A stretch of 32,000 nucleotides of DNA from Aquifex aeolicus VF5. Its GTDB lineage: Bacteria; Aquificota; Aquificia; Aquificales; Aquificaceae. The notes below the pieces were generated by a model. It was not told where the DNA came from and made no database searches. It worked only from the letters and a program-made list of their open reading frames with translations. Position 1 is the stretch's first letter. Every line of letters begins with the position of its first letter. Position numbers and translations under genes: made by a program. Where the stretch lies: assembly GCF_000008625.1 (NCBI RefSeq), contig NC_000918.1:180001-212000 (forward strand), read 5' to 3'. Shown here piece by piece: positions 4,532-31,816 of this stretch.

Positions 4532-5025
4532 CTCTTTTCACCGCCTATTTCAAAGTCTTCGGGTTTAATATTTTCGAGCCACTCCCTTAACTTCTTCTTC
4601 TCTTCGTCCTCTTCGGGTTCCGGCAGTTTTGACTGTTCAAGGACATGTTCCGCCACGTATATGGGAGCTCCGAACCTGAGGGCGAGGTTTATAGCGTCGC
4701 TCGGCCTTGAATCTATAACGAGTGTGTTGTTCCCCTGATTTATGTAAATTTCCGCGTAGTAAGTGCTGTCTTTGAGGTCGTTTATTACAACCTTTTCAAC
4801 GTTTCCGCCCATTTCCGTGATTATGTTTTTAAGGAGTTCGTAAGTCATGGGTCTCGGGGGTTCTACACCTTGGAGTTTCATGGCTATGCCGTTTGCCTCA
4901 AAGGCTCCTATCCATATAGGGAGTATTAAGTTTTCGTCTTCCTTTCCCTTTAAAACAACTATAGGCATCTGAGTCGTGGGATCAAGAGTAATTCCGTGAA
5001 CTTCCATTTCAACAAGTTCGCTCAT
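4528..5025 (-). CDS. Bifunctional nuclease (BFN/DUF151) domain protein
   Basis: Pattern typical of DUF151: VVLK...[31 protein letters not shown]...[25 protein letters not shown] overlap with the miaB stop. Confidence 0.75.
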
Positions 5026-6344
5026 TTTATCACCTCCAAAAGTTCGCCCTCTAAACTGAAGGGAGAAGACTTAATAACCTTTATCTTCACTATCTTTCCT
5101 AAAAGTGAAGGGTCTCCCTTAAAGGAAGCCCACTTGTTCGTTGTTGTTCTGCCTATAAGTTCACCGTTCTTCTCCTCTTCAACAAGGACTTCCTGAACCG
5201 TTCCTTCGTACTTTTTGGCTATTTCCGAGAGTATTGACTTTTGGAGTTCTAAGAGTCTCCTCATCCTTTCCGTTTTCACATCATCGGGAATCTGTCCCTC
5301 CATTTCCGCGGCGGGTGTTCCAGGTCTCGGAGAGAACTTGAAGGAGAACACCTGTTCAAACCTTACCTTTTTAAGGACGTCCAGTGTGTGTTCAAAATCC
5401 TCCTCAGTTTCCGTGGGAAATCCAACGATTACGTCCGTGGACATTGCGATGTCCTTAACTTTTTCCTTTAGTTTTTCTATCTTTTCAAGGTATTCCTCTT
5501 TTGTGTATCCTCTGTCCATCAAGGCAAGAATCCTGTTTGAACCTGCTTGGAAGGGAAGGTGGAGTGCGTTGCACACCTGCGGAATGTCTGCCATAGCCTC
5601 TATTATGTCGTCTGTGAGATCTCTCGGGTGTCCAGTAGTGAACCTTATCCTCTCAACGCCGTCTATCTTTGAAACCTGATACAGGAGTTCTGAGAAGGGA
5701 ATGGGTTTTTCAAAGTCTTTGCCCCATGCGGTTACGTTTTGACCAAGGAGGTGTATCTCCCTTACCCCATCGTCAACAAGTCTTTTCACTTCGTCAAGTA
5801 TGCTGTGAAGTGCTCTTGAACGCTCTTTACCTCTAGTTCTCGGAACTACGCAGTAGGTGCAGTTCTTGTCGCAACCCTTTATTATCGTCACGTAGGCGCA
5901 GTACTTATTATCCCTCTCTACGGGGTATTCCCATATCTTGTCTTCGTCTTGGGGAAGCTCGTCAAGGATTGCAATAGCCTTATAGCCCGCCTGAGCTTGA
6001 TTTATGAGTTCGGGGAGCTGGTGCATGTTAAAAGAGGAAAACATTATGTCTATTACGGGAGCTTTTTTTACGAGTTCCCATCCCGTTCTCTGAGCTAGGC
6101 AACCCGCAACCGCGATAAGAGCCTTCGGGTTCTTTTCCTTAATTTTTTTATACTCACCGAGGTGGGATAAAACCTTCTGGTCGGGTTTTTCCCTTATGGT
6201 ACATGTATTTAAAATTATTAAATCCGCCTCTTCCCAGTTGTCTGTCTGCTCGTATCCGATAGTTTTAAGGAGTCCCCTTATACGTTCGCTGTCGTTGAAG
6301 TTCATCTGGCAACCGAAAGTCTTTATGAAAAACTTTTTACTCAT
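5022..6344 (-). CDS. miaB: tRNA-i6A37 methylthiotransferase (radical SAM MTTase)
   Basis: N-terminal MTTase cysteines (FGCQMN, NTCTIRE, AGCLAQ), radical-SAM CDKNCTYC (Cx3Cx2C) and a C-terminal TRAM-like domain. 440 aa. Confidence 0.9.
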   Translation of the reverse strand: MSKKFFIKTFGCQMNFNDSERIRGLLKTIGYEQTDNWEEADLIILNTCTIREKPDQKVLSHLGEYKKIKEKNPKALIAVAGCLAQRTGWELVKKAPVIDIMFSSFNMHQLPELINQAQAGYKAIAILDELPQDEDKIWEYPVERDNKYCAYVTIIKGCDKNCTYCVVPRTRGKERSRALHSILDEVKRLVDDGVREIHLLGQNVTAWGKDFEKPIPFSELLYQVSKIDGVERIRFTTGHPRDLTDDIIEAMADIPQVCNALHLPFQAGSNRILALMDRGYTKEEYLEKIEKLKEKVKDIAMSTDVIVGFPTETEEDFEHTLDVLKKVRFEQVFSFKFSPRPGTPAAEMEGQIPDDVKTERMRRLLELQKSILSEIAKKYEGTVQEVLVEEEKNGELIGRTTTNKWASFKGDPSLLGKIVKIKVIKSSPFSLEGELLEVIK

Positions 6345-7380: not shown

Positions 7381-8349
7381 TCACTTTATCATTTCGGCGT
7401 AAGTTCTCGCGAGTTTAAAGAACTTAGTAGCCCTCTCCTTTGCCTTCTCCTTTTCTTCTTGAGTTAAGTTAGGATCGTCAAGTAAGAAGGAGTTCACCTT
7501 CCCTCTCACGTAAGCCCTGTAGCACTTGAAAAAGGGAAGCATAAGGTCAAAGTCGGGATCTTTTGATATCCTCCTGTACTCTTCCTCGTAAGCCCTTGCG
7601 AGGTATTCCCTTCCGAAGTACTCCAGTTCCATAGAAAGGAAGCACATGTCGTTGAGAACGTCTCCGTACCTGAACCTGTCGTTAAACTCAATACAGTCAA
7701 AGATACACACTCCTTCTTCCAGGAAGGCAACGTGTTCCGTCCTTATGTCCCCGTGCCCGTCCCTTATCCTCCCTTCCTTTATCCTCTTTTCGAAAATGTC
7801 CGCGTGCTTTTCGTAAAATTCGTTTGTCTTTCTCTTTATAAAATCGTAGTCCTCCTTGCTTATCGTTATCCCTATATACTTTTCAGTCTGGGCGAAGTTC
7901 TCGTCGGTGTTGTACTTCATTACTTCCATCTTTCCGAACTCGTCCACCCTCTTAGCCCTCACGTGGAAGTCCGCAACAACTTTTGCGACCTTTTTCAAGT
8001 CTTCTTCCGTTGTCTTATCGAGTCTGTTTGAGAGGATAGCTTCATCCGGTATCCTTCTCATCTTTACGGCGTACTCCACCACGTTCTCGTCGTTTTCTAT
8101 TACCCACTTACCCTTTACTTCGCTTATGGGAACTACACCTATGTAAACCCAGGGGCACAGCCTCCTGTTGAGTTCCACTTCCTTGTAGCACATTTCTTTC
8201 CTTTTCTCGAGCGTTGAGTAATCGAGAAAGCCGAAGTTCACAGGCTTTTTTATCTTGTAAACAACGTCTTTCAAAAGTAAAACCCATGAGGTGTGGGTCT
8301 GGATAACTTCTGCACCCAGTTCTTTTGCGAGTTCAAGTACTTTGCTCAC
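7381..8349 (-). CDS. Aminoglycoside-phosphotransferase-like (protein-kinase-fold) protein, stand-alone
   Basis: Catalytic-loop-like HGDIRTEHV, followed by FDCIEFNDRFRYGDVLND (the APH/choline-kinase Brenner and DxD region). GTG start. Substrate unknown. Confidence 0.65.
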   Translation of the reverse strand: MSKVLELAKELGAEVIQTHTSWVLLLKDVVYKIKKPVNFGFLDYSTLEKRKEMCYKEVELNRRLCPWVYIGVVPISEVKGKWVIENDENVVEYAVKMRRIPDEAILSNRLDKTTEEDLKKVAKVVADFHVRAKRVDEFGKMEVMKYNTDENFAQTEKYIGITISKEDYDFIKRKTNEFYEKHADIFEKRIKEGRIRDGHGDIRTEHVAFLEEGVCIFDCIEFNDRFRYGDVLNDMCFLSMELEYFGREYLARAYEEEYRRISKDPDFDLMLPFFKCYRAYVRGKVNSFLLDDPNLTQEEKEKAKERATKFFKLARTYAEMIK

Positions 8350-9866: not shown

Positions 9867-10262
9867 ATGAACAAACTCACTCTCTTGCTTAAGTTTTTGA
9901 TACAAGCCTTCATGTGGTTTGCCATAGCTTCGGAATTCGTCTCCTTACTTTACGAGATATTTCACTCCTTAAAAGAGAATTACTTTTTAGGTTTAGAGAC
10001 TCACAAGATACTAGTTAAAGTTCTGAATGTCATCATTATATACGAGCTCTTCACTACTCTTTTGATAGCACTTGAGGAAAGGAGGATAAAACTTATCCTG
10101 ATAATAGACACCGCGATGATATTCTTCATAAGGGAACTTCTCATCGTTCTCTTTACCTACAAAAAGCTTGAACTTAGTGAGGGTATCGCTTCAGCTTTAA
10201 TTCTCGGGACACTTGGTATCTTGAGGTTTCTCTACTTGAAGTACAAGATAGATGTAGAGTAA
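9867..10262 (+). CDS. Small integral membrane protein (possibly PsiE-like)
   Basis: 131 aa with about 4 predicted TM helices. The family assignment rests on overall pattern only. Confidence 0.45.
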   Translation: MNKLTLLLKFLIQAFMWFAIASEFVSLLYEIFHSLKENYFLGLETHKILVKVLNVIIIYELFTTLLIALEERRIKLILIIDTAMIFFIRELLIVLFTYKKLELSEGIASALILGTLGILRFLYLKYKIDVE

Positions 10263-10267
10263 TTCTT

Positions 10268-11383
10268 ATGAAAAAGTTCTTTCCCCTCCTTCTCCTTCTG
10301 CTCCTGACTTTCGTTCCCGCTTTATACCTCCTCAATAAAAAAGAGTACGAAATTTATACCGTAAAGAAGGAAAAAGTTGAAAAAACCGTTTACGCTACCG
10401 GGTATGTAAAGGCTTTAAACGAAGTTGAGGTAAAGGCCAAGGTTGCCGGGTATGTATCGGAAGTTTACAAGGATGTGGGTCAAAAAGTCAAAAAGGGAGA
10501 ACCCCTCGCACGCATACAGAATAAACCCCTTGAAGAAAAAGTGAAAATTTTAGAAATTCAGCTTCAAAATTTAAAAGAAAAAATAAGGGAAGATTCACCC
10601 TTCATACGGGCTTACGAACTGAAAATAAAAGCCCTCCGCGAGGAGGTAAAGGAACTAGAAGAGAAACTCAAAAGGAGAAAGAGACTATATGAAAAGGAAC
10701 TAATTTCCAAGGAAGAGTACGAAAGCCTGAAGAGGAAGTACAGAGCAAAACTGGAAAGCTTAAAAGCCCTTGAGAGTGAATTCAAGGAGAGCGTTGAAGA
10801 AGTGAGGAGAAAGATAAGGGAAGTAAAGGCGAATTTAGAAAAGGCTAAAGAGGAACTCGGAGAGTACACAGTCAGGAGTCCCATAGACGGAGTTATTTTG
10901 AAGAAGAACGTGGAAGTCGGAGAGTACGTAAACACATTCATGGAGACAAAACCACTTTTTGTGGTGGGAAATACAGAAAAACTAAAAACTTACTTAGAAG
11001 TTGACGAAGAGTACTCCTCACTTGTAAAAAAGGGACAGGAAGTTTACGTAAGCGTTGAGTCTTTAAAGGACAAACTCTTTAAAGGGAAAATCGTAAAAGT
11101 TCACAAAAAGGTGGACGAAAAGAAGAAGGTTTTTTTAGTTGAAGCGGAGGTGGATTATTCAGAGAAAGTTCTTCCGGGAACTACCGTTGAGGGATACATC
11201 GTGGTTTACAGGGGAGAAGCACTTTTGATACCCGAAAAAGCTATTTTAGAAGGAAACAGAGTGAAGATTTTGAAGAACGGGAAAATCATCGATAAGACTA
11301 TAAAACTCGGTGAAACTTACGGGGACAAAGTGGAAGTCCTTGAAGGTTTGAAAGAAGGCGACAGGATAGTGATTGAGAAATGA
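10268..11383 (+). CDS. HlyD/MacA-type periplasmic adaptor (membrane fusion protein)
   Basis: N-terminal signal anchor FFPLLLLLLLTFVPALYLL, a lipoyl-like motif (GYVSEVYKDVGQKVKKGEPLARI), a long K/E-rich coiled coil, and a C-terminal beta-barrel region. Confidence 0.8.
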   Translation: MKKFFPLLLLLLLTFVPALYLLNKKEYEIYTVKKEKVEKTVYATGYVKALNEVEVKAKVAGYVSEVYKDVGQKVKKGEPLARIQNKPLEEKVKILEIQLQNLKEKIREDSPFIRAYELKIKALREEVKELEEKLKRRKRLYEKELISKEEYESLKRKYRAKLESLKALESEFKESVEEVRRKIREVKANLEKAKEELGEYTVRSPIDGVILKKNVEVGEYVNTFMETKPLFVVGNTEKLKTYLEVDEEYSSLVKKGQEVYVSVESLKDKLFKGKIVKVHKKVDEKKKVFLVEAEVDYSEKVLPGTTVEGYIVVYRGEALLIPEKAILEGNRVKILKNGKIIDKTIKLGETYGDKVEVLEGLKEGDRIVIEK

Positions 11384-20712: not shown

Positions 20713-23292
20713 ATGGAGAAATCTGAGAAAGAGCTCACTCCCATGCTCTCACAATACCACTACTTCAAAAATCAGTACCCCGACTGTTTGCTTCTCTTCA
20801 GACTCGGAGACTTTTACGAGCTCTTTTACGAAGACGCTTACATAGGCTCTAAAGAACTGGGACTTGTTCTCACCTCAAGACCCGCGGGAAAGGGAAAGGA
20901 AAGGATACCCATGTGCGGAGTTCCCTACCACTCCGCAAACTCCTACATAGCTAAACTCGTAAACAAGGGATACAAAGTAGCCATATGCGAGCAGGTGGAG
21001 GATCCTTCTAAGGCAAAAGGTATCGTAAAGAGGGAGGTAGTAAGGGTAATCACTCCCGGAACTTTCTTTGAAAGGGACACGGGAGGACTCGCATCACTCT
21101 ACAAAAAAGGAAATCATTACTACGTAGGTTATCTAAACCTTGCGGTAGGGGAGTTCTTGGGAGCTAAGGTAAAGATAGAGGAACTCCTTGACCTTCTCTC
21201 AAAGTTAAACATAAAAGAAATACTCGTAAAAAAAGGGGAAAAATTACCAGAAGAACTGGAAAAAGTTTTGAAGGTTTACGTAAGCGAGCTGGAAGAGGAG
21301 TTCTTTGAAGAAGGGAGTGAAGAAATTTTAAAGGATTTCGGGGTTTTGAGCCTTCAAGCCTTCGGTTTTGAAGAGGACACTTATTCCCTTCCCTTGGGAG
21401 CTGTTTACAAGTACGCAAAAACGACACAAAAGGGCTACACACCTCTCATTCCGAGACCAAAACCTTACAGAGATGAAGGCTTCGTAAGACTCGACATAAA
21501 AGCGATAAAAGGGCTTGAAATTCTGGAAAGCCTTGAGGGTAGAAAGGACATATCTCTCTTCAAGGTAATAGACAGAACCTTAACGGGGATGGGAAGGAGG
21601 AGGCTAAAGTTCAGGCTTCTTTCTCCCTTTCGTAGCAGGGAAAAGATTGAAAGGATACAGGAAGGTGTGCAGGAGTTAAAAGAAAACAGGGAAGCGCTTT
21701 TGAAGATAAGGCAGATACTGGAGGGAATGGCGGACCTAGAAAGACTCGTTTCCAAGATAAGCTCTAACATGGCAACACCGAGGGAGCTCGTTTACCTCAA
21801 AAACTCCCTGAAAAAAGTGGAAGAACTCAGACTCCTCCTTTTGGAATTAAAGGCTCCCATCTTCAAGGAAATCTTACAAAACTTTGAAGACACAAAAAAG
21901 ATAATAAACGACATAGAAAAGACGCTCGTTGAGGACCCTCCCCTTCACGTAAAAGAGGGCGGGCTCATAAGGGAAGGTGTGAACGCGTATCTTGACGAAC
22001 TCAGGTTCATCAGGGACAACGCTGAAACTTACCTCAGGGAGTACGAAAAAAAACTGAGGCAAGAGACGGGCATCCAGAGCCTGAAGATTGGCTACAACAA
22101 GGTTATGGGCTACTACATAGAAGTGACAAAGCCAAACCTAAAGTACGTCCCTTCCTACTTCAGGAGAAGGCAAACTCTTTCTAACTCCGAGCGTTTCACC
22201 ACGGAAGAACTCCAGAGACTTGAGGAGAAAATACTTTCCGCCCAGACACGCATAAACGACCTTGAGTACGAACTCTATAAAGAGCTCAGGGAAAGAGTAG
22301 TAAAGGAACTGGACAAAGTAGGAAACAACGCAAGTGCGGTTGCGGAAGTTGACTTCATTCAGTCCCTTGCACAAATAGCTTACGAGAAGGACTGGGCAAA
22401 ACCCCAAATCCACGAAGGTTATGAGCTGATAATAGAGGAGGGAAGGCATCCCGTAATAGAAGAGTTCGTAGAAAACTACGTCCCTAACGACACGAAATTG
22501 GACAGAGACTCCTTCATACACGTGATAACAGGTCCGAACATGGCGGGCAAATCCAGTTATATAAGGCAGGTGGGAGTCCTCACACTCCTTTCCCACATCG
22601 GTAGTTTTATCCCTGCAAGGAGAGCAAAAATACCCGTCGTTGACGCCCTATTTACGAGGATAGGTTCGGGAGATGTTCTGGCTTTAGGAGTTTCAACCTT
22701 TATGAACGAGATGCTTGAGGTTTCTAATATCCTGAACAACGCAACCGAAAAAAGTTTAGTAATCCTGGACGAGGTGGGAAGGGGAACTTCCACCTACGAC
22801 GGCATAGCTATATCAAAAGCCATAGTAAAGTACATAAGCGAAAAGTTAAAGGCAAAAACTCTTCTCGCCACACACTTTCTGGAAATAACCGAGCTGGAAG
22901 GAAAAATAGAAGGAGTAAAAAATTACCACATGGAAGTGGAGAAGACCCCCGAAGGAATAAGGTTTTTATATATTCTCAAGGAAGGAAAGGCTGAAGGCAG
23001 TTTCGGTATAGAGGTAGCAAAACTCGCAGGACTTCCTGAAGAAGTGGTAGAAGAGGCGAGGAAAATTTTAAGAGAGCTTGAAGAAAAGGAAAACAAGAAG
23101 GAGGATATCGTTCCCTTGCTTGAGGAAACCTTCAAAAAATCCGAAGAGGCTCAAAGACTTGAGGAGTACGAGGAAATAATCAAAAAGATTGAAGAAATAG
23201 ACATAGGGAACACAACTCCCCTTCAGGCACTCCTTATACTTGCGGAGCTAAAAAAGAAGTGCAGTTTCTCTAAAAAGGAGTCCGGAGCTTGA
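20713..23292 (+). CDS. mutS: DNA mismatch repair protein MutS
   Basis: Mismatch-binding GDFYELF, Walker [29 protein letters not shown]. 859 aa. Confidence 0.96.
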
Positions 23293-23337
23293 ACTTACGG
23301 ATTATGGAATTATCTTGACTTAGTAGGAGTGATATGT

Positions 23338-23604
23338 ATGGTAGGAAAAGATGAAATCGTAGTAAAAGTTTTACCTAAAGGACAGATAACCTTGCCCAAG
23401 AGAATAAGAGAAAAACTAGGAATACGGGAAGGCGATATTTTAATTGTTGAAGAAAAGGAAGGAAAATTAGAAATCAGGAAACCTAAAAGCCTTAGGGACT
23501 TCTATGGTTTCCTGAAAGGAAAGAAATCTATTAATAGGGAGAATATAGAAAGAGTTATTGAAGAGGTTGTAAAGGAACGTGAACTTGAAAAAGATAGTCG
23601 TTGA
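23338..23604 (+). CDS. vapB: AbrB/MazE/SpoVT-fold antitoxin (VapB-type)
   Basis: SpoVT-AbrB motif VKVLPKGQITLPKRIREKLGIREGDILIV. SD AGGAG lies 8 nt upstream of ATG 23338. The 3' end overlaps the PIN gene start. Confidence 0.8.
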   Translation: MVGKDEIVVKVLPKGQITLPKRIREKLGIREGDILIVEEKEGKLEIRKPKSLRDFYGFLKGKKSINRENIERVIEEVVKERELEKDSR

Positions 23605-23995
23605 TACAAGCGTATTTATAAGACTGTTTACAAGAAATGATGAGAAGAAATTTGAAAAAGCGGAGAAACTTATAGATGATGCATCCAAGGGTAAAATTCA
23701 GTTATTCGTTCCGTTTATCGTAGTCGCGGAAATAGTTTGGGTCTTGGAGAAGGTTTACAAAGTTAATAGAGAAAACATAAGGGATGTGGTGGAGGCACTT
23801 ATCAATACACGTCCACGTAGCAATTACAGCATCGGAAAACTTTATTCTTTTTTCTACGTATAATTTTATAGCGTTAAGGATTAAATCTCTTTGTTCCACA
23901 TGTATACCACACTCATGAAAAACTTAGATGAACTAGTCACCTTTGACGAAACCGATTTCAAGAAATTAAAAGATATAAGAGTGAGAATTCTTTAG
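23579..23995 (+). pseudogene. vapC: PIN-domain toxin (VapC-type) disrupted by an internal 96-bp inversion
   Basis: The N-terminal part is on + (23579..23812, KKIVVDTSVFI...VAEIVWVLEK...EALINTR). The middle is on - (23908..23813, GIHVEQRDLILNAIKLYVEKRIKFSDAVIATW). The C-terminal part is on + (23909..23995, TLMKNLDELVTFDETDFKKLKDIRVRIL*). As it stands, the + frame stops at 23861-23863 after 94 aa. Confidence 0.8.
23813..23908 (-). other. Inverted internal segment of the vapC PIN gene (32 codons, including the third conserved acidic residue)
   Basis: The codon-by-codon reverse complement gives GIHVEQRDLILNAIKLYVEKRIKFSDAVIATW, which is in frame with both flanks once flipped. The breakpoints are ambiguous by 2 bp (GT at 23811-12, AC at 23909-10). 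Confidence 0.8.
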
Positions 23996-24007
23996 AAACT
24001 CTATTGC

Positions 24008-24754
24008 TTACGTTTTGAGCTTCCTCCCAAAAACCAAGTACGCCGTGTGGGCCACCATTTGATCCTCGGGTCTGAACCTTTCTGAGATAGTCTTGTAATG
24101 CCTGTGGAGTATCTCAACCACTTCAAGATTTCCGAAGTAATTTTCTATACTTTCCAGGAGCTTTATAACTTGATTTGCGGTGGGAAGGAGAAAACCAACT
24201 GGAGCACCCTCCATCAAGCTTTTGTGAACCTTTTCCAGATAATGCCAAGGTTCCCTTACGTCCACAAAGGCAGCGTGGAATATTCCTTCCGGGACTTCCG
24301 CGTCTTTGAAGTCCACGTTGAAAAACTTTACATTCTTTCCCAGATTGAACTTCTTCAAATTCTTCTGGGCTGTTTTGTAAAACTCTTCTACTGCTTCAAA
24401 GGTCCACACCTCTCCCGCAACTTCCGAGAGAACTGCAAGGAGTGCCCCGCTTCCAGTCCCGAACTCCAGAACTCTCTTTTCTTTGTTCAGGTTTAACTTC
24501 AGGGCTATATAAAAGGAATCCTTCGGGTATATTATCTGGGTTTTCCTCTCAAATCCGAGGAGTATGATCTCCTCGAGCGTTGGTCTGTAAACTTCAAATC
24601 CGTTTATCTTTACACCTTCGGGCTTTCCTATAACTTCGTCAAACTTTAAAACACTTTTCTTTACACTTAAACTCTGTTTTGGTAGCAGTTTCCTCAGGAA
24701 CTTCTTTTCCCCAAAGCGTATGAGGACGTACTCTCCTTCCTTAAAAGAGTTCAT
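24008..24754 (-). CDS. trmI: tRNA (adenine58-N1)-methyltransferase (TrmI/Gcd14 family)
   Basis: 248 aa with an N-terminal beta domain, SAM motif I VLEFGTGSGAL, and overall Gcd14-like organisation. Confidence 0.85.
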   Translation of the reverse strand: MNSFKEGEYVLIRFGEKKFLRKLLPKQSLSVKKSVLKFDEVIGKPEGVKINGFEVYRPTLEEIILLGFERKTQIIYPKDSFYIALKLNLNKEKRVLEFGTGSGALLAVLSEVAGEVWTFEAVEEFYKTAQKNLKKFNLGKNVKFFNVDFKDAEVPEGIFHAAFVDVREPWHYLEKVHKSLMEGAPVGFLLPTANQVIKLLESIENYFGNLEVVEILHRHYKTISERFRPEDQMVAHTAYLVFGRKLKT

Positions 24755-28048: not shown

Positions 28049-28645
28049 ATGTCCAAACTCAAGACTGAAAAAGAGTTGAAGAAACGGGAAATAATGAGGG
28101 TAGCCTGTAAACTCTTTGCCCAGAAAGGCTATCACAACACCACTATGCCAGATATAGCTAAAGCATTAGGTATGAGTGTTGGAAACCTCTACAACTACTT
28201 CTCCTCAAAAGAAGAACTGGCAAAGGAGATAATGCTCTTTACCTCTAAACTCGTGGGGGAAAGATTGAGAAAGGTAAACGAGAGTAATCTGGATTTCAAG
28301 GAAAAGACAAAGCTTCTCGTCAAGAGCTTTTTACAAATAGCCCTCGAAGAACCCGAACTCATAAATTACTTCCTGAAAGTTTACCTCGTAAATACGGAAG
28401 TTTTTAAAGATGATTGTAAAGGTTTTGCGTGCGTCAGTGACGTGGTAACGGAAGTTATGATATTTGTGAGTGACGGGGTTGAAAAGGGCATTTTCAGGAA
28501 TCAGGACTTCTTCACAGCCTTTGTAACCATTATGGGTCCTCTTGGGGGTATAGTATTTCTCCACAACGAAGGACTCCTCGAGAAACCCCTTCTTGAATAC
28601 GCCGAAGAACTTGCACAGAATATATGGAACGCTTTAAAAGCTTAA
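28049..28645 (+). CDS. TetR/AcrR family transcriptional regulator
   Basis: HTH REIMRVACKLFAQKGYHNTTMPDIAKALGMSVGNLYNYFSSKEEL. ATG 28049 lies 10 nt after the regulator stop. The track's 28013 start lies inside the regulator gene. Confidence 0.85.
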   Translation: MSKLKTEKELKKREIMRVACKLFAQKGYHNTTMPDIAKALGMSVGNLYNYFSSKEELAKEIMLFTSKLVGERLRKVNESNLDFKEKTKLLVKSFLQIALEEPELINYFLKVYLVNTEVFKDDCKGFACVSDVVTEVMIFVSDGVEKGIFRNQDFFTAFVTIMGPLGGIVFLHNEGLLEKPLLEYAEELAQNIWNALKA

Positions 28646-29841
28646 CAAATCTTATCAAAAGCCTGTTTTTCTAAAAATCCTACAAGGTGTTTAAACTTCC
28701 TATCCTTTTTCTTCTCCTCCTCCACGGACCTTATGGCGTGTATGACCGTAGTGTGATCCTTCCTCTTAAAAGCCCTTGCGATTTCTATCAGACTTGCGGA
28801 ACACACCTTCCTGCACAGGTACATCGCTATCTTTCTCGCCTCGCTCGTCCTTTTATTCCTCTTGTCAGAGAGTATGTCTTCCACCTTCACCGCGTAGTAA
28901 TTTGCCACAAACTCTACTATTTGCATTAGCTTGTCCCTTTCCTTCCTTTCTTTTCTTTCTAAGCCTTCAAATCCCTTTAACTTTATGAGTTTAATCTTCC
29001 CCTCTATCTCCCTTACGTTTTTCGTGTTCTCTAAAAGGTAATCAATAACTTCCTTTCTGAGTTCAAGGTTAAACTCCTTTAACTTTTCCTTTATTATCTT
29101 GAACCTCGTTTTATTGTCCAGCTCTATCTCTACCAGAATACCGCCTTCGAACCTGCTCACCAGTCTGTCAGAAACTCCGTCGAGCTTTTGAGGGTGTCTG
29201 TCTGAGGCTAGGATTATCTGCTTTTCTAGGAGGTAGAGAGTATTAAAAATGTGGAAAAACTCTATCTGAGTTCTTTCCTTCCCCGAAAGGAATTGAACGT
29301 CGTCGAGGAGAAGAAGGTCAACACTCTTGTACATATTCCTGAACTCGTTTATCGTTCCCTTTTTCAGATGTTCAACCATAGCCTGTGCAAAGTCGTCCGC
29401 CGAGGAGTATATAACTCTGTAGCCTCTCTTTTTCGCTTCGTTTCCCGCGGCCTGAAGGAGGTGTGTCTTTCCAGTTCCCACGCTACCGTATATAAAGATC
29501 GGGTTGTACAAACTTCCGAGGTTTTCTAAAGCTTCCTTTACTACCTCGTAAGCGAGTCTGTTCCCCTCACCTACTATAAAGTTCTCCAGAGTGTACTTGG
29601 GATTGAGGAAGTCCTTTATCTCTACCTTTTTCTTTTCTTCCTTTTCTTTTACCTCTATAAGTTTTCTTACTTCTTCTTCTAAGAAGGTGTTCACTATTGT
29701 CTCGAGCCACTCTCTGTAGTCTTCTCCTGGAGCTATGAACAAAAACTTTCCCTTTTCCTGTTTTATCTCGAATTTTTTCAAAAACTCCCTCGCGTAGGAG
29801 TCCACGCTCTCTATCTTCTTTATTAGTGCGTTTAGTTCCAT
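28642..29841 (-). CDS. dnaA: Chromosomal replication initiator protein DnaA
   Basis: 399 aa with Walker A GSVGTGKTHL, Walker B LLLDDVQF, sensor/box VII region, and domain IV HTH ...RKIAMYLCRKV...DHTTVIHAIRSV. Confidence 0.97.
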   Translation of the reverse strand: MELNALIKKIESVDSYAREFLKKFEIKQEKGKFLFIAPGEDYREWLETIVNTFLEEEVRKLIEVKEKEEKKKVEIKDFLNPKYTLENFIVGEGNRLAYEVVKEALENLGSLYNPIFIYGSVGTGKTHLLQAAGNEAKKRGYRVIYSSADDFAQAMVEHLKKGTINEFRNMYKSVDLLLLDDVQFLSGKERTQIEFFHIFNTLYLLEKQIILASDRHPQKLDGVSDRLVSRFEGGILVEIELDNKTRFKIIKEKLKEFNLELRKEVIDYLLENTKNVREIEGKIKLIKLKGFEGLERKERKERDKLMQIVEFVANYYAVKVEDILSDKRNKRTSEARKIAMYLCRKVCSASLIEIARAFKRKDHTTVIHAIRSVEEEKKKDRKFKHLVGFLEKQAFDKIC

Positions 29842-31033: not shown

Positions 31034-31816
31034 ATGTACACGCTCAGAGAACCCTACAAAGGCTACGAGGTCAAAGTAACGCTCCTGCCTATAGAGGATA
31101 TAGTAATCCCTCCCATACAGAGGGATTTATCGGAGACATTGATAAAGAAGTTAATGCTCAGCATAGAAAAAGTTGGATTTGTAGATCCCATACTCGTCGT
31201 TGAAGGAGAAGAAGGAAAGTACGAGGTGATAAACGGTCAGCACAGACTCAAGGCTGCGGAACTCCTCGGCATAAGGGAAATTCCCGCAATAATTCTGCCT
31301 CAGGAAACTAAAGACTACATAATATCCCTCAACGTTGAAAAGGCACCGAACTTAAAGGACAAGGCTCATCAGGCTTACGAGATATTCATGAAGTACCTTA
31401 AGGAAAATCCCGAAATGGAGGAAGTGGAGCTCGAAAACATGGTGGAAGAACCTTACTTCCTTACGGTTGGTTTCATTACTGACCGCTTCGGAGAAAAGAG
31501 GTTTCCCGCTTACGCCTTTGAAAAGGTTCTGAAAAAAGTAGACGAGTTTTTAGGTCTTCCCCTGGAGGAAGCGGAGAGGGAAAGGGAAAACAGGGCAAAC
31601 GTCCTGAGAGACGTCAGGGAAGTTATGGAGGAGAAGTATCAGGAACTCGGACTCACAAACGCCCTTCACAAGGAAGCGATAATTTCTAAAGCCTTCCAGT
31701 CCGTGTACGGAAAGAGAGTAAGGAAGGTAGATGACGACTTTTATACGGTATTTGAAAAGATAAAGGAAGCCATACCCAGAGTTTCCTTTACCGAAGAAGA
31801 GCTGGAAAGCTTTTAA
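31034..31816 (+). CDS. ParB/Srx-fold N-terminal domain protein with an NGQHR motif and a helical C-terminal region of unknown function
   Basis: LLPIEDIVIPPIQRDL...DPILVV...YEVINGQHRLKAAELLGIREIPAII matches the ParB-like nuclease domain pattern. SD AAGGAGTGG is upstream. There is no canonical GERRxRA box and no obvious ParB HTH. Confidence 0.7.
   Translation: MYTLREPYKGYEVKVTLLPIEDIVIPPIQRDLSETLIKKLMLSIEKVGFVDPILVVEGEEGKYEVINGQHRLKAAELLGIREIPAIILPQETKDYIISLNVEKAPNLKDKAHQAYEIFMKYLKENPEMEEVELENMVEEPYFLTVGFITDRFGEKRFPAYAFEKVLKKVDEFLGLPLEEAERERENRANVLRDVREVMEEKYQELGLTNALHKEAIISKAFQSVYGKRVRKVDDDFYTVFEKIKEAIPRVSFTEEELESF

Follow-up and report, generated by a model that had tools for sequence, protein, structure and literature searches.

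A vapC toxin gene interrupted by an inverted segment of about 100 bp, next to an intact vapB gene, in Aquifex aeolicus

The vapBC locus and its split toxin gene

The window, that is, the whole 32-kb stretch of Aquifex aeolicus DNA analyzed here, carries a vapBC cassette flanked by mutS (20713..23292) and, on the minus strand, by a gene for a GCD14-family (PF08704) tRNA methyltransferase (24008..24754). The antitoxin gene vapB (23338..23604, plus strand) is intact, as the first-pass annotation of this DNA had claimed for an AbrB-type antitoxin gene upstream of the toxin. It encodes an 88-aa AbrB/MazE/SpoVT-type DNA-binding protein, which matched the Pfam MazE_antitoxin family (6.5e-12) and an NCBIfam AbrB-family domain (4.5e-15) and was identical in sequence to WP_164930581.1 of A. 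aeolicus. The antitoxin gene comes first, and its end overlaps the start of the toxin gene by 20 to 26 nt.

The toxin gene vapC lies in three pieces. Its 5′ part (23585..23812, plus strand) encodes the N-terminal part of a PIN domain, 76 residues when counted from a TTG codon, matching positions 1 to 63 of the Pfam PIN profile and including D9 and E51 (138-aa numbering), both of which were invariant in our alignment of homologues. The middle part (23813..23908) is encoded on the minus strand and supplies residues 79 to 110, GIHVEQRDLILNAIKLYVEKRIKFSDAVIATW, with the catalytic residue D104. The 3′ part (23909..23995) is again on the plus strand and supplies residues 111 to 138, TLMKNLDELVTFDETDFKKLKDIRVRIL, with the catalytic residue D123 and the terminal stop codon; this part has kept its original frame but is stranded behind stop codons. 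The translations thus agreed with the earlier description of D104 as lying on the wrong strand and of D123 as lying in an orphan fragment. The open reading frame (ORF) now present (23579..23863, plus strand; 94 aa) follows the native PIN N-terminus up to EALINTR and then continues for 16 missense residues, PRSNYSIGKLYSFFYV, which are the antisense reading of the inverted piece, before ending at a TAA codon (23861..23863).

Two candidate start codons were found for vapC, namely GTG at 23579 (94 aa at present, 138 aa when restored) and TTG at 23585 (92 and 136 aa, respectively). The true start is probably the TTG codon, because it yields the 136 aa found in every close homologue, the 92-aa version in RefSeq, and the 20-nt overlap with vapB seen in relatives. 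Of the restored protein proposed in the first-pass annotation, the four acidic residues D9, E51, D104, and D123 therefore stood, whereas the length of 138 aa should probably be shortened to 136 aa.

Two further reading frames at the locus were considered. Gene callers reported the stranded tail of vapC (23903-23995) as a 31-aa protein, MYTTLMKNLDELVTFDETDFKKLKDIRVRIL, on five read-derived contigs; the inversion gave rise to this ORF, which is not a genuine gene. A 65-aa ORF on the minus strand (23702..23899) was rejected as an independent gene, as it was absent from the protein collection and none of 85 related loci matched the minus strand. A scan of 23150-24150 for promoters and terminators returned counts at the level of shuffled sequence and was uninformative.

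Elsewhere in the window, a 322-aa ORF (7381-8349, minus strand) matched no Pfam family at an E-value of 1e-5 and was the sole large ORF left with no domain assignment. A 399-aa DnaA-family protein with Bac_DnaA and Bac_DnaA_C domains is encoded at 28642-29841 (minus strand), and a 260-aa protein with ParB_N and GmrSD_N domains is encoded about 1.2 kb from it (31034-31816, plus strand). A replication origin may lie near this end of the window.

Reversal of the inverted segment and the restored PIN protein

Reverse-complementing 23813..23908 rebuilt one unbroken 417-nt PIN/VapC ORF. The identical ORF was obtained by flipping 23812..23909 or 23811..23910, the latter equivalence having been pointed out earlier, but flipping 23810..23911 altered the product. 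Since only these three flips work, the ambiguity at the junctions is exactly 2 bp, consisting of GT on the left (23811..23812) and its complement AC on the right (23909..23910), and the left breakpoint may be placed anywhere from the 23810/23811 step to the 23812/23813 step. The inverted segment can accordingly be described as 96, 98, or 100 bp in length. The first-pass annotation had also held the retention of codon phase at both junctions to be unusual, and this point did not survive. An inversion leaves length unchanged, so that whatever follows the inverted segment necessarily remains in frame and an exact flip-back always restores the ORF. Moreover, the ambiguity in length leaves three possible positions for the breakpoints, which are therefore not assignable to a codon phase; a preserved codon phase is one chosen description rather than a property of the event.

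The restored ORF behaved as a complete PIN domain. The present ORF scored 45.2 bits against Pfam PIN (PF01850; 120 profile positions; cut-off, 23.6 bits), with a match confined to positions 1-63, whereas the restored ORF scored 61.3 bits and was matched at positions 1-118. Against the NCBIfam VapC equivalog NF047959, the restored protein scored 26.5 bits, below the cut-off of 80, and it therefore belongs to a divergent PIN subgroup outside this narrow equivalog. Among about 5.8 billion protein clusters searched, 21 relatives were found, 13 of which were 136 aa long and 57% to 68% identical to the restored sequence over 97% to 99% of its length. In an alignment of the restored protein with 18 homologues of 112 to 137 aa (136 aa in 16 of the 18), D9, E51, D104, and D123 were invariant across all 19 sequences and no gap fell at either junction; the A. 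aeolicus sequence retained all 14 near-invariant residues of the family. The homologous PIN proteins were thus collinear with the reconstruction across both junctions, including the flipped segment. When five homologues were compared with the whole window by tblastn, with no prior assumption of an inversion, their residues 77-109 matched the minus strand at 23908..23810 or 23908..23813 (E-values from 1.7e-9 to 6.5e-6). These matches and the rebuilt ORF bear out the first-pass claim that an internal inversion has split a vapC PIN gene.

Structural modeling pointed in the same direction. The AlphaFold2 model of the restored protein (mean pLDDT, 95.9; pTM, 0.87) placed the flipped piece in a strand (80-82), a helix (85-97), and the start of a further helix (102-113) that carries D104. 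In a Foldseek comparison with the Protein Data Bank, the matches listed were almost all PIN-domain proteins, the best at a probability of 1.00, and included many VapC toxins of VapBC complexes from Mycobacterium tuberculosis, Rickettsia, Klebsiella, Shigella, and others, with TM-scores of only 0.35 to 0.49 against solved PIN/VapC structures. The single restored sequence matched no solved structure at an E-value of 0.01; the family profile matched one, PcrIIC1 (8wmm; E-value, 1.4e-4). PcrIIC1, a small PIN-like protein solved together with a type II-C Cas9, was the closest solved structure both by profile and by fold and is not a classical VapC, although both similarities were weak (TM-score, 0.48). 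On its domain content, the restored gene pair is a vapBC type II toxin-antitoxin cassette with a predicted PIN toxin.

In its present state, the cassette would yield a very different product. Ribosomes initiating at the vapC start would read 76 to 78 native residues and then the 16 antisense residues before terminating at TAA 23861..23863, giving a 92- to 94-aa N-terminal PIN fragment that would lack strand 3, the helix that follows it, D104, and D123. By the AlphaFold2 model, about one third of a compact single-domain fold is missing from this fragment. Since it lacks half of the catalytic acidic quartet (D104 and D123), the fragment should have no RNase activity, and the truncated VapC is expected to be inactive and unstable. 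VapB could still be produced from its intact gene.

Derivation and origin of the inversion

To place the arrangement among its relatives, 85 related loci from other organisms were compared. Of these, 83 were collinear over at least 120 aa; one of the remaining two was cut by a contig end, and the other had a decayed N-terminus. The piece was found on the minus strand in none of the 85. Since the related loci are collinear and none is reversed, the inversion is derived and unique to A. aeolicus, and a shared arrangement with a conserved minus-strand gene, against which the first-pass annotation had advised checking, was not seen. The locus with the decayed N-terminus (L071, ~4850-5285), from a deltaproteobacterial relative, has a PIN match over residues 42-136 only, with in-frame stops upstream; judged by its sequence, it looks like a second, independent toxin pseudogene with an N-terminal lesion rather than an inversion.

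The closest relatives (in loci L084, L086, and L087) are vapBC pairs with the same 20-nt overlap in different neighborhoods. In L084 (2271-5411) and L086 (2271-6726), vapBC lies between hsdM (N6_Mtase) and hsdS (Methylase_S) of a type I restriction-modification system, and is thus a toxin-antitoxin cassette embedded in a defense locus; in L087, from Venenivibrio, it lies downstream of recJ. As its closest relatives occupy other neighborhoods, this vapBC family appears to have changed genomic context as a cassette. In L086, the hsdM-vapBC-hsdS block is followed by a gene for an SMC_N/AAA_15/AAA_21 ATPase. A PsiE-family gene followed by a membrane-fusion (HlyD/RND-adaptor) gene was found both in the window (9867-11383) and in L084 (108-1624), so that gene order is locally the same in A. 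aeolicus and in the organism carrying L084; in the latter, the pair sits just upstream of the hsdM-vapBC block, with vapBC about 3 kb away, compared with about 12 kb in A. aeolicus.

The present orientation was also found outside the source record. An inversion this short, with hardly any homology at its junctions, could resemble a mis-join or a deliberate edit, and the first-pass annotation had listed an assembly or engineering artefact among its explanations. The truncated product is nevertheless present in RefSeq as WP_164930582.1, "PIN domain-containing protein [Aquifex aeolicus]" (92 aa, starting at TTG 23585), located on a 1,551,335-bp A. aeolicus record, and the 94-aa truncated protein with its diagnostic 16-residue tail was predicted on six contigs built from publicly available sequencing runs. 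Three of these contigs, from the separate runs SRR29904084, SRR22575695, and SRR22575694, matched the window at 100% over 6,285, 3,891, and 3,456 bp, respectively, and ran straight through the inverted piece into several kilobases of identical flanking sequence. Because independent read-derived contigs match completely, misassembly is excluded, as is an edit made in the window alone, and we regard an artefact of assembly, sequencing, or engineering as having a negligible chance of being correct. All available A. aeolicus assemblies probably represent one isolate, VF5.

Another explanation raised earlier was a reversible ON/OFF switch, in which an intragenic inverton would be flipped by a recombinase encoded elsewhere and a subpopulation of cells would make active VapC. 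The inversion is clean, with no second lesion in the restored ORF, and the absence of further decay would also be expected of a maintained, reversible element; in other bacteria, premature stops are known to be introduced by intragenic invertons, some of which may be fixed in a single orientation (bioRxiv 10.1101/2023.03.11.532203). Known invertons are, however, defined by flanking inverted repeats that an invertase recognizes, and the repeats at these junctions were at chance level. No inverted repeat lying within 25 bp of both junctions was longer than 5 nt when exact or 8 nt with one mismatch. Among 1,500 random pairs of positions 96 bp apart in the same window, the corresponding means were 5.3 and 7.3 nt, and 82% and 40% of the pairs, respectively, were at least as good. 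A repeat search with a 6-nt seed over 23650-24060 found no inverted or direct repeat at the junctions, and 2-bp junction complementarity occurred in 16% of random pairs, so that the earlier statement of 2-bp microhomology with no flanking repeats was upheld. The same is true of the statement that no recombinase gene is nearby: no integrase, resolvase, invertase, or transposase domain was detected in the 28 annotated ORFs of at least 110 aa in the window (Pfam searches for 26 ORFs; precomputed domains [locus L081] for the two largest, MutS and a class-I aminoacyl-tRNA synthetase). Both the reference record and the six read-derived contigs carried the OFF form only, at contig level, where a minority orientation would not show. 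Furthermore, no related locus was in the flipped state (0/85), and the ON protein, whether of 138 or 136 aa, was absent by exact look-up from a collection of about 15 billion proteins. In homologue searches with the restored protein, identity did not exceed 68% for any sequence other than the truncated A. aeolicus protein, and a metagenome scan with a degenerate pattern for the A. aeolicus-specific peptide VYKVNRENIRDVVEALINT gave no matches. A reversible switch is thus very unlikely. A working variant with no repeats at all, in which minimal junction sequence would allow low-frequency flipping by a recombinase or topoisomerase encoded elsewhere and rare cells would re-arm VapC, appears slightly less likely still; if true, a toxin gene of a hyperthermophile would contain an inverton that lacks repeats. 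It is also conceivable that the inversion was accidental and that the PIN fragment still has a function, such as assisting VapB as a co-repressor or as a partner devoid of toxicity; the locus would then be a remodeled regulator rather than a dead gene. The truncated ORF does retain its start and its overlap with vapB, vapB itself is intact, and no further decay has set in. Against such a role, the truncated form occurs only in A. aeolicus, with the other family members found at 112 to 137 aa and mostly at 136 aa; the 16-residue tail is antisense read-through; and a protein missing about one third of its fold would be unlikely to fold stably. We consider such continued use improbable, though less so than a switch.

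Our findings argue strongly for a single, non-programmed inversion of about 96 to 100 bp, with 2-bp microhomology at its junctions, that very probably made a pseudogene of vapC while leaving vapB intact. The chance-level repeats and the OFF-only assemblies support the corresponding explanation in the first-pass annotation, in which a natural illegitimate inversion locked the toxin off. Illegitimate recombination would be the most likely source of the lesion, and likely routes include two double-strand breaks that were misjoined, subunit exchange by a topoisomerase or gyrase, or a pair of template switches primed by microhomology, among which the sequence does not discriminate. Once restored, the ORF contains no further stop or frameshift, and all invariant and near-invariant residues of its family are retained; the inversion therefore looks recent or specific to the sequenced VF5 lineage. 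It may have arisen in nature or during laboratory propagation.

At the restored left junction (window 23808-23823 + 23898-23907; restored ORF 230-245), the palindromic hexamers CACGTG, GTATAC, and ACATGT fall within 16 bp; palindromic hexamers average 10.3 per kb over the window. Among the three equivalent breakpoints, one is the exact center of CACGTG, a site that the inversion destroyed. Cutting and re-ligation by a single enzyme at palindromic hexamers was considered and rejected, as the right junction has no matching site; the palindromes at the left junction are a curiosity, not a mechanism.

Implications and comparison with known systems

The inversion has direct consequences for annotation. 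The 92-aa "PIN domain-containing protein" in the RefSeq genome of this widely used model hyperthermophile is the front of the vapC pseudogene, and the locus should be scored as a disabled toxin with an intact antitoxin gene whenever toxin-antitoxin systems of A. aeolicus are counted; a toxin-antitoxin census that mentions A. aeolicus and VapC (PMC2374986) does not describe the inversion. More generally, homology searches on both strands recover inverted fragments that are missed by pseudogene callers based on frameshifts or stops. The locus provides a clean bacterial case of an exact inversion of about 100 bp with no flanking inverted repeats, in contrast to the repeat-flanked microinversions of primates, and it may interest those who study how illegitimate recombination proceeds at high temperatures. 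The lesion is a further case of a kind already known, and no new mechanism emerges from it.

The A. aeolicus locus shares with VapBC type II modules an antitoxin gene that comes first and overlaps the toxin gene, a MazE_antitoxin/AbrB antitoxin, a PIN-domain toxin, and the four acidic residues, and the predicted fold of the restored toxin matches solved VapC toxins. It differs from them in that the toxin gene is broken, with two catalytic residues gone, and in that the toxin belongs to a divergent PIN subgroup. Intragenic invertons, as described by Chanin et al. (bioRxiv 10.1101/2023.03.11.532203), have flanking inverted repeats, presumed invertases, and both orientations in clonal samples. 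The inverted segment of vapC resembles the premature-stop class of these elements in lying wholly inside a coding sequence, introducing a premature stop, and leaving two smaller ORFs, whereas its repeats are at chance level, recombinase domains are absent from the window ORFs of at least 110 aa, and a single orientation is found in the assemblies.

Spontaneous microinversions (PMC8755829) and template-switch events (PMC5453318) offer a parallel, as they are likewise one-off changes to the exact reverse complement, with no bases gained or lost. The 59 definite human-chimpanzee microinversions reported by Potapova et al. (2022; PMC8755829) measured 17 to 33 nt and all had perfect or near-perfect flanking inverted repeats. 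The vapC event, at 96 to 100 bp, has only 2-bp junction complementarity, and models of template switching that depend on repeats and of break-induced replication therefore fit it poorly.

In its outcome, the locus resembles the toxin-first decay of chromosomal toxin-antitoxin loci, with a disabled toxin beside an intact antitoxin gene, as may also be compared with the deltaproteobacterial relative L071. The lesions that usually disable toxins are point mutations, frameshifts, deletions, and insertions of IS elements, whereas in A. aeolicus the lesion is an inversion.
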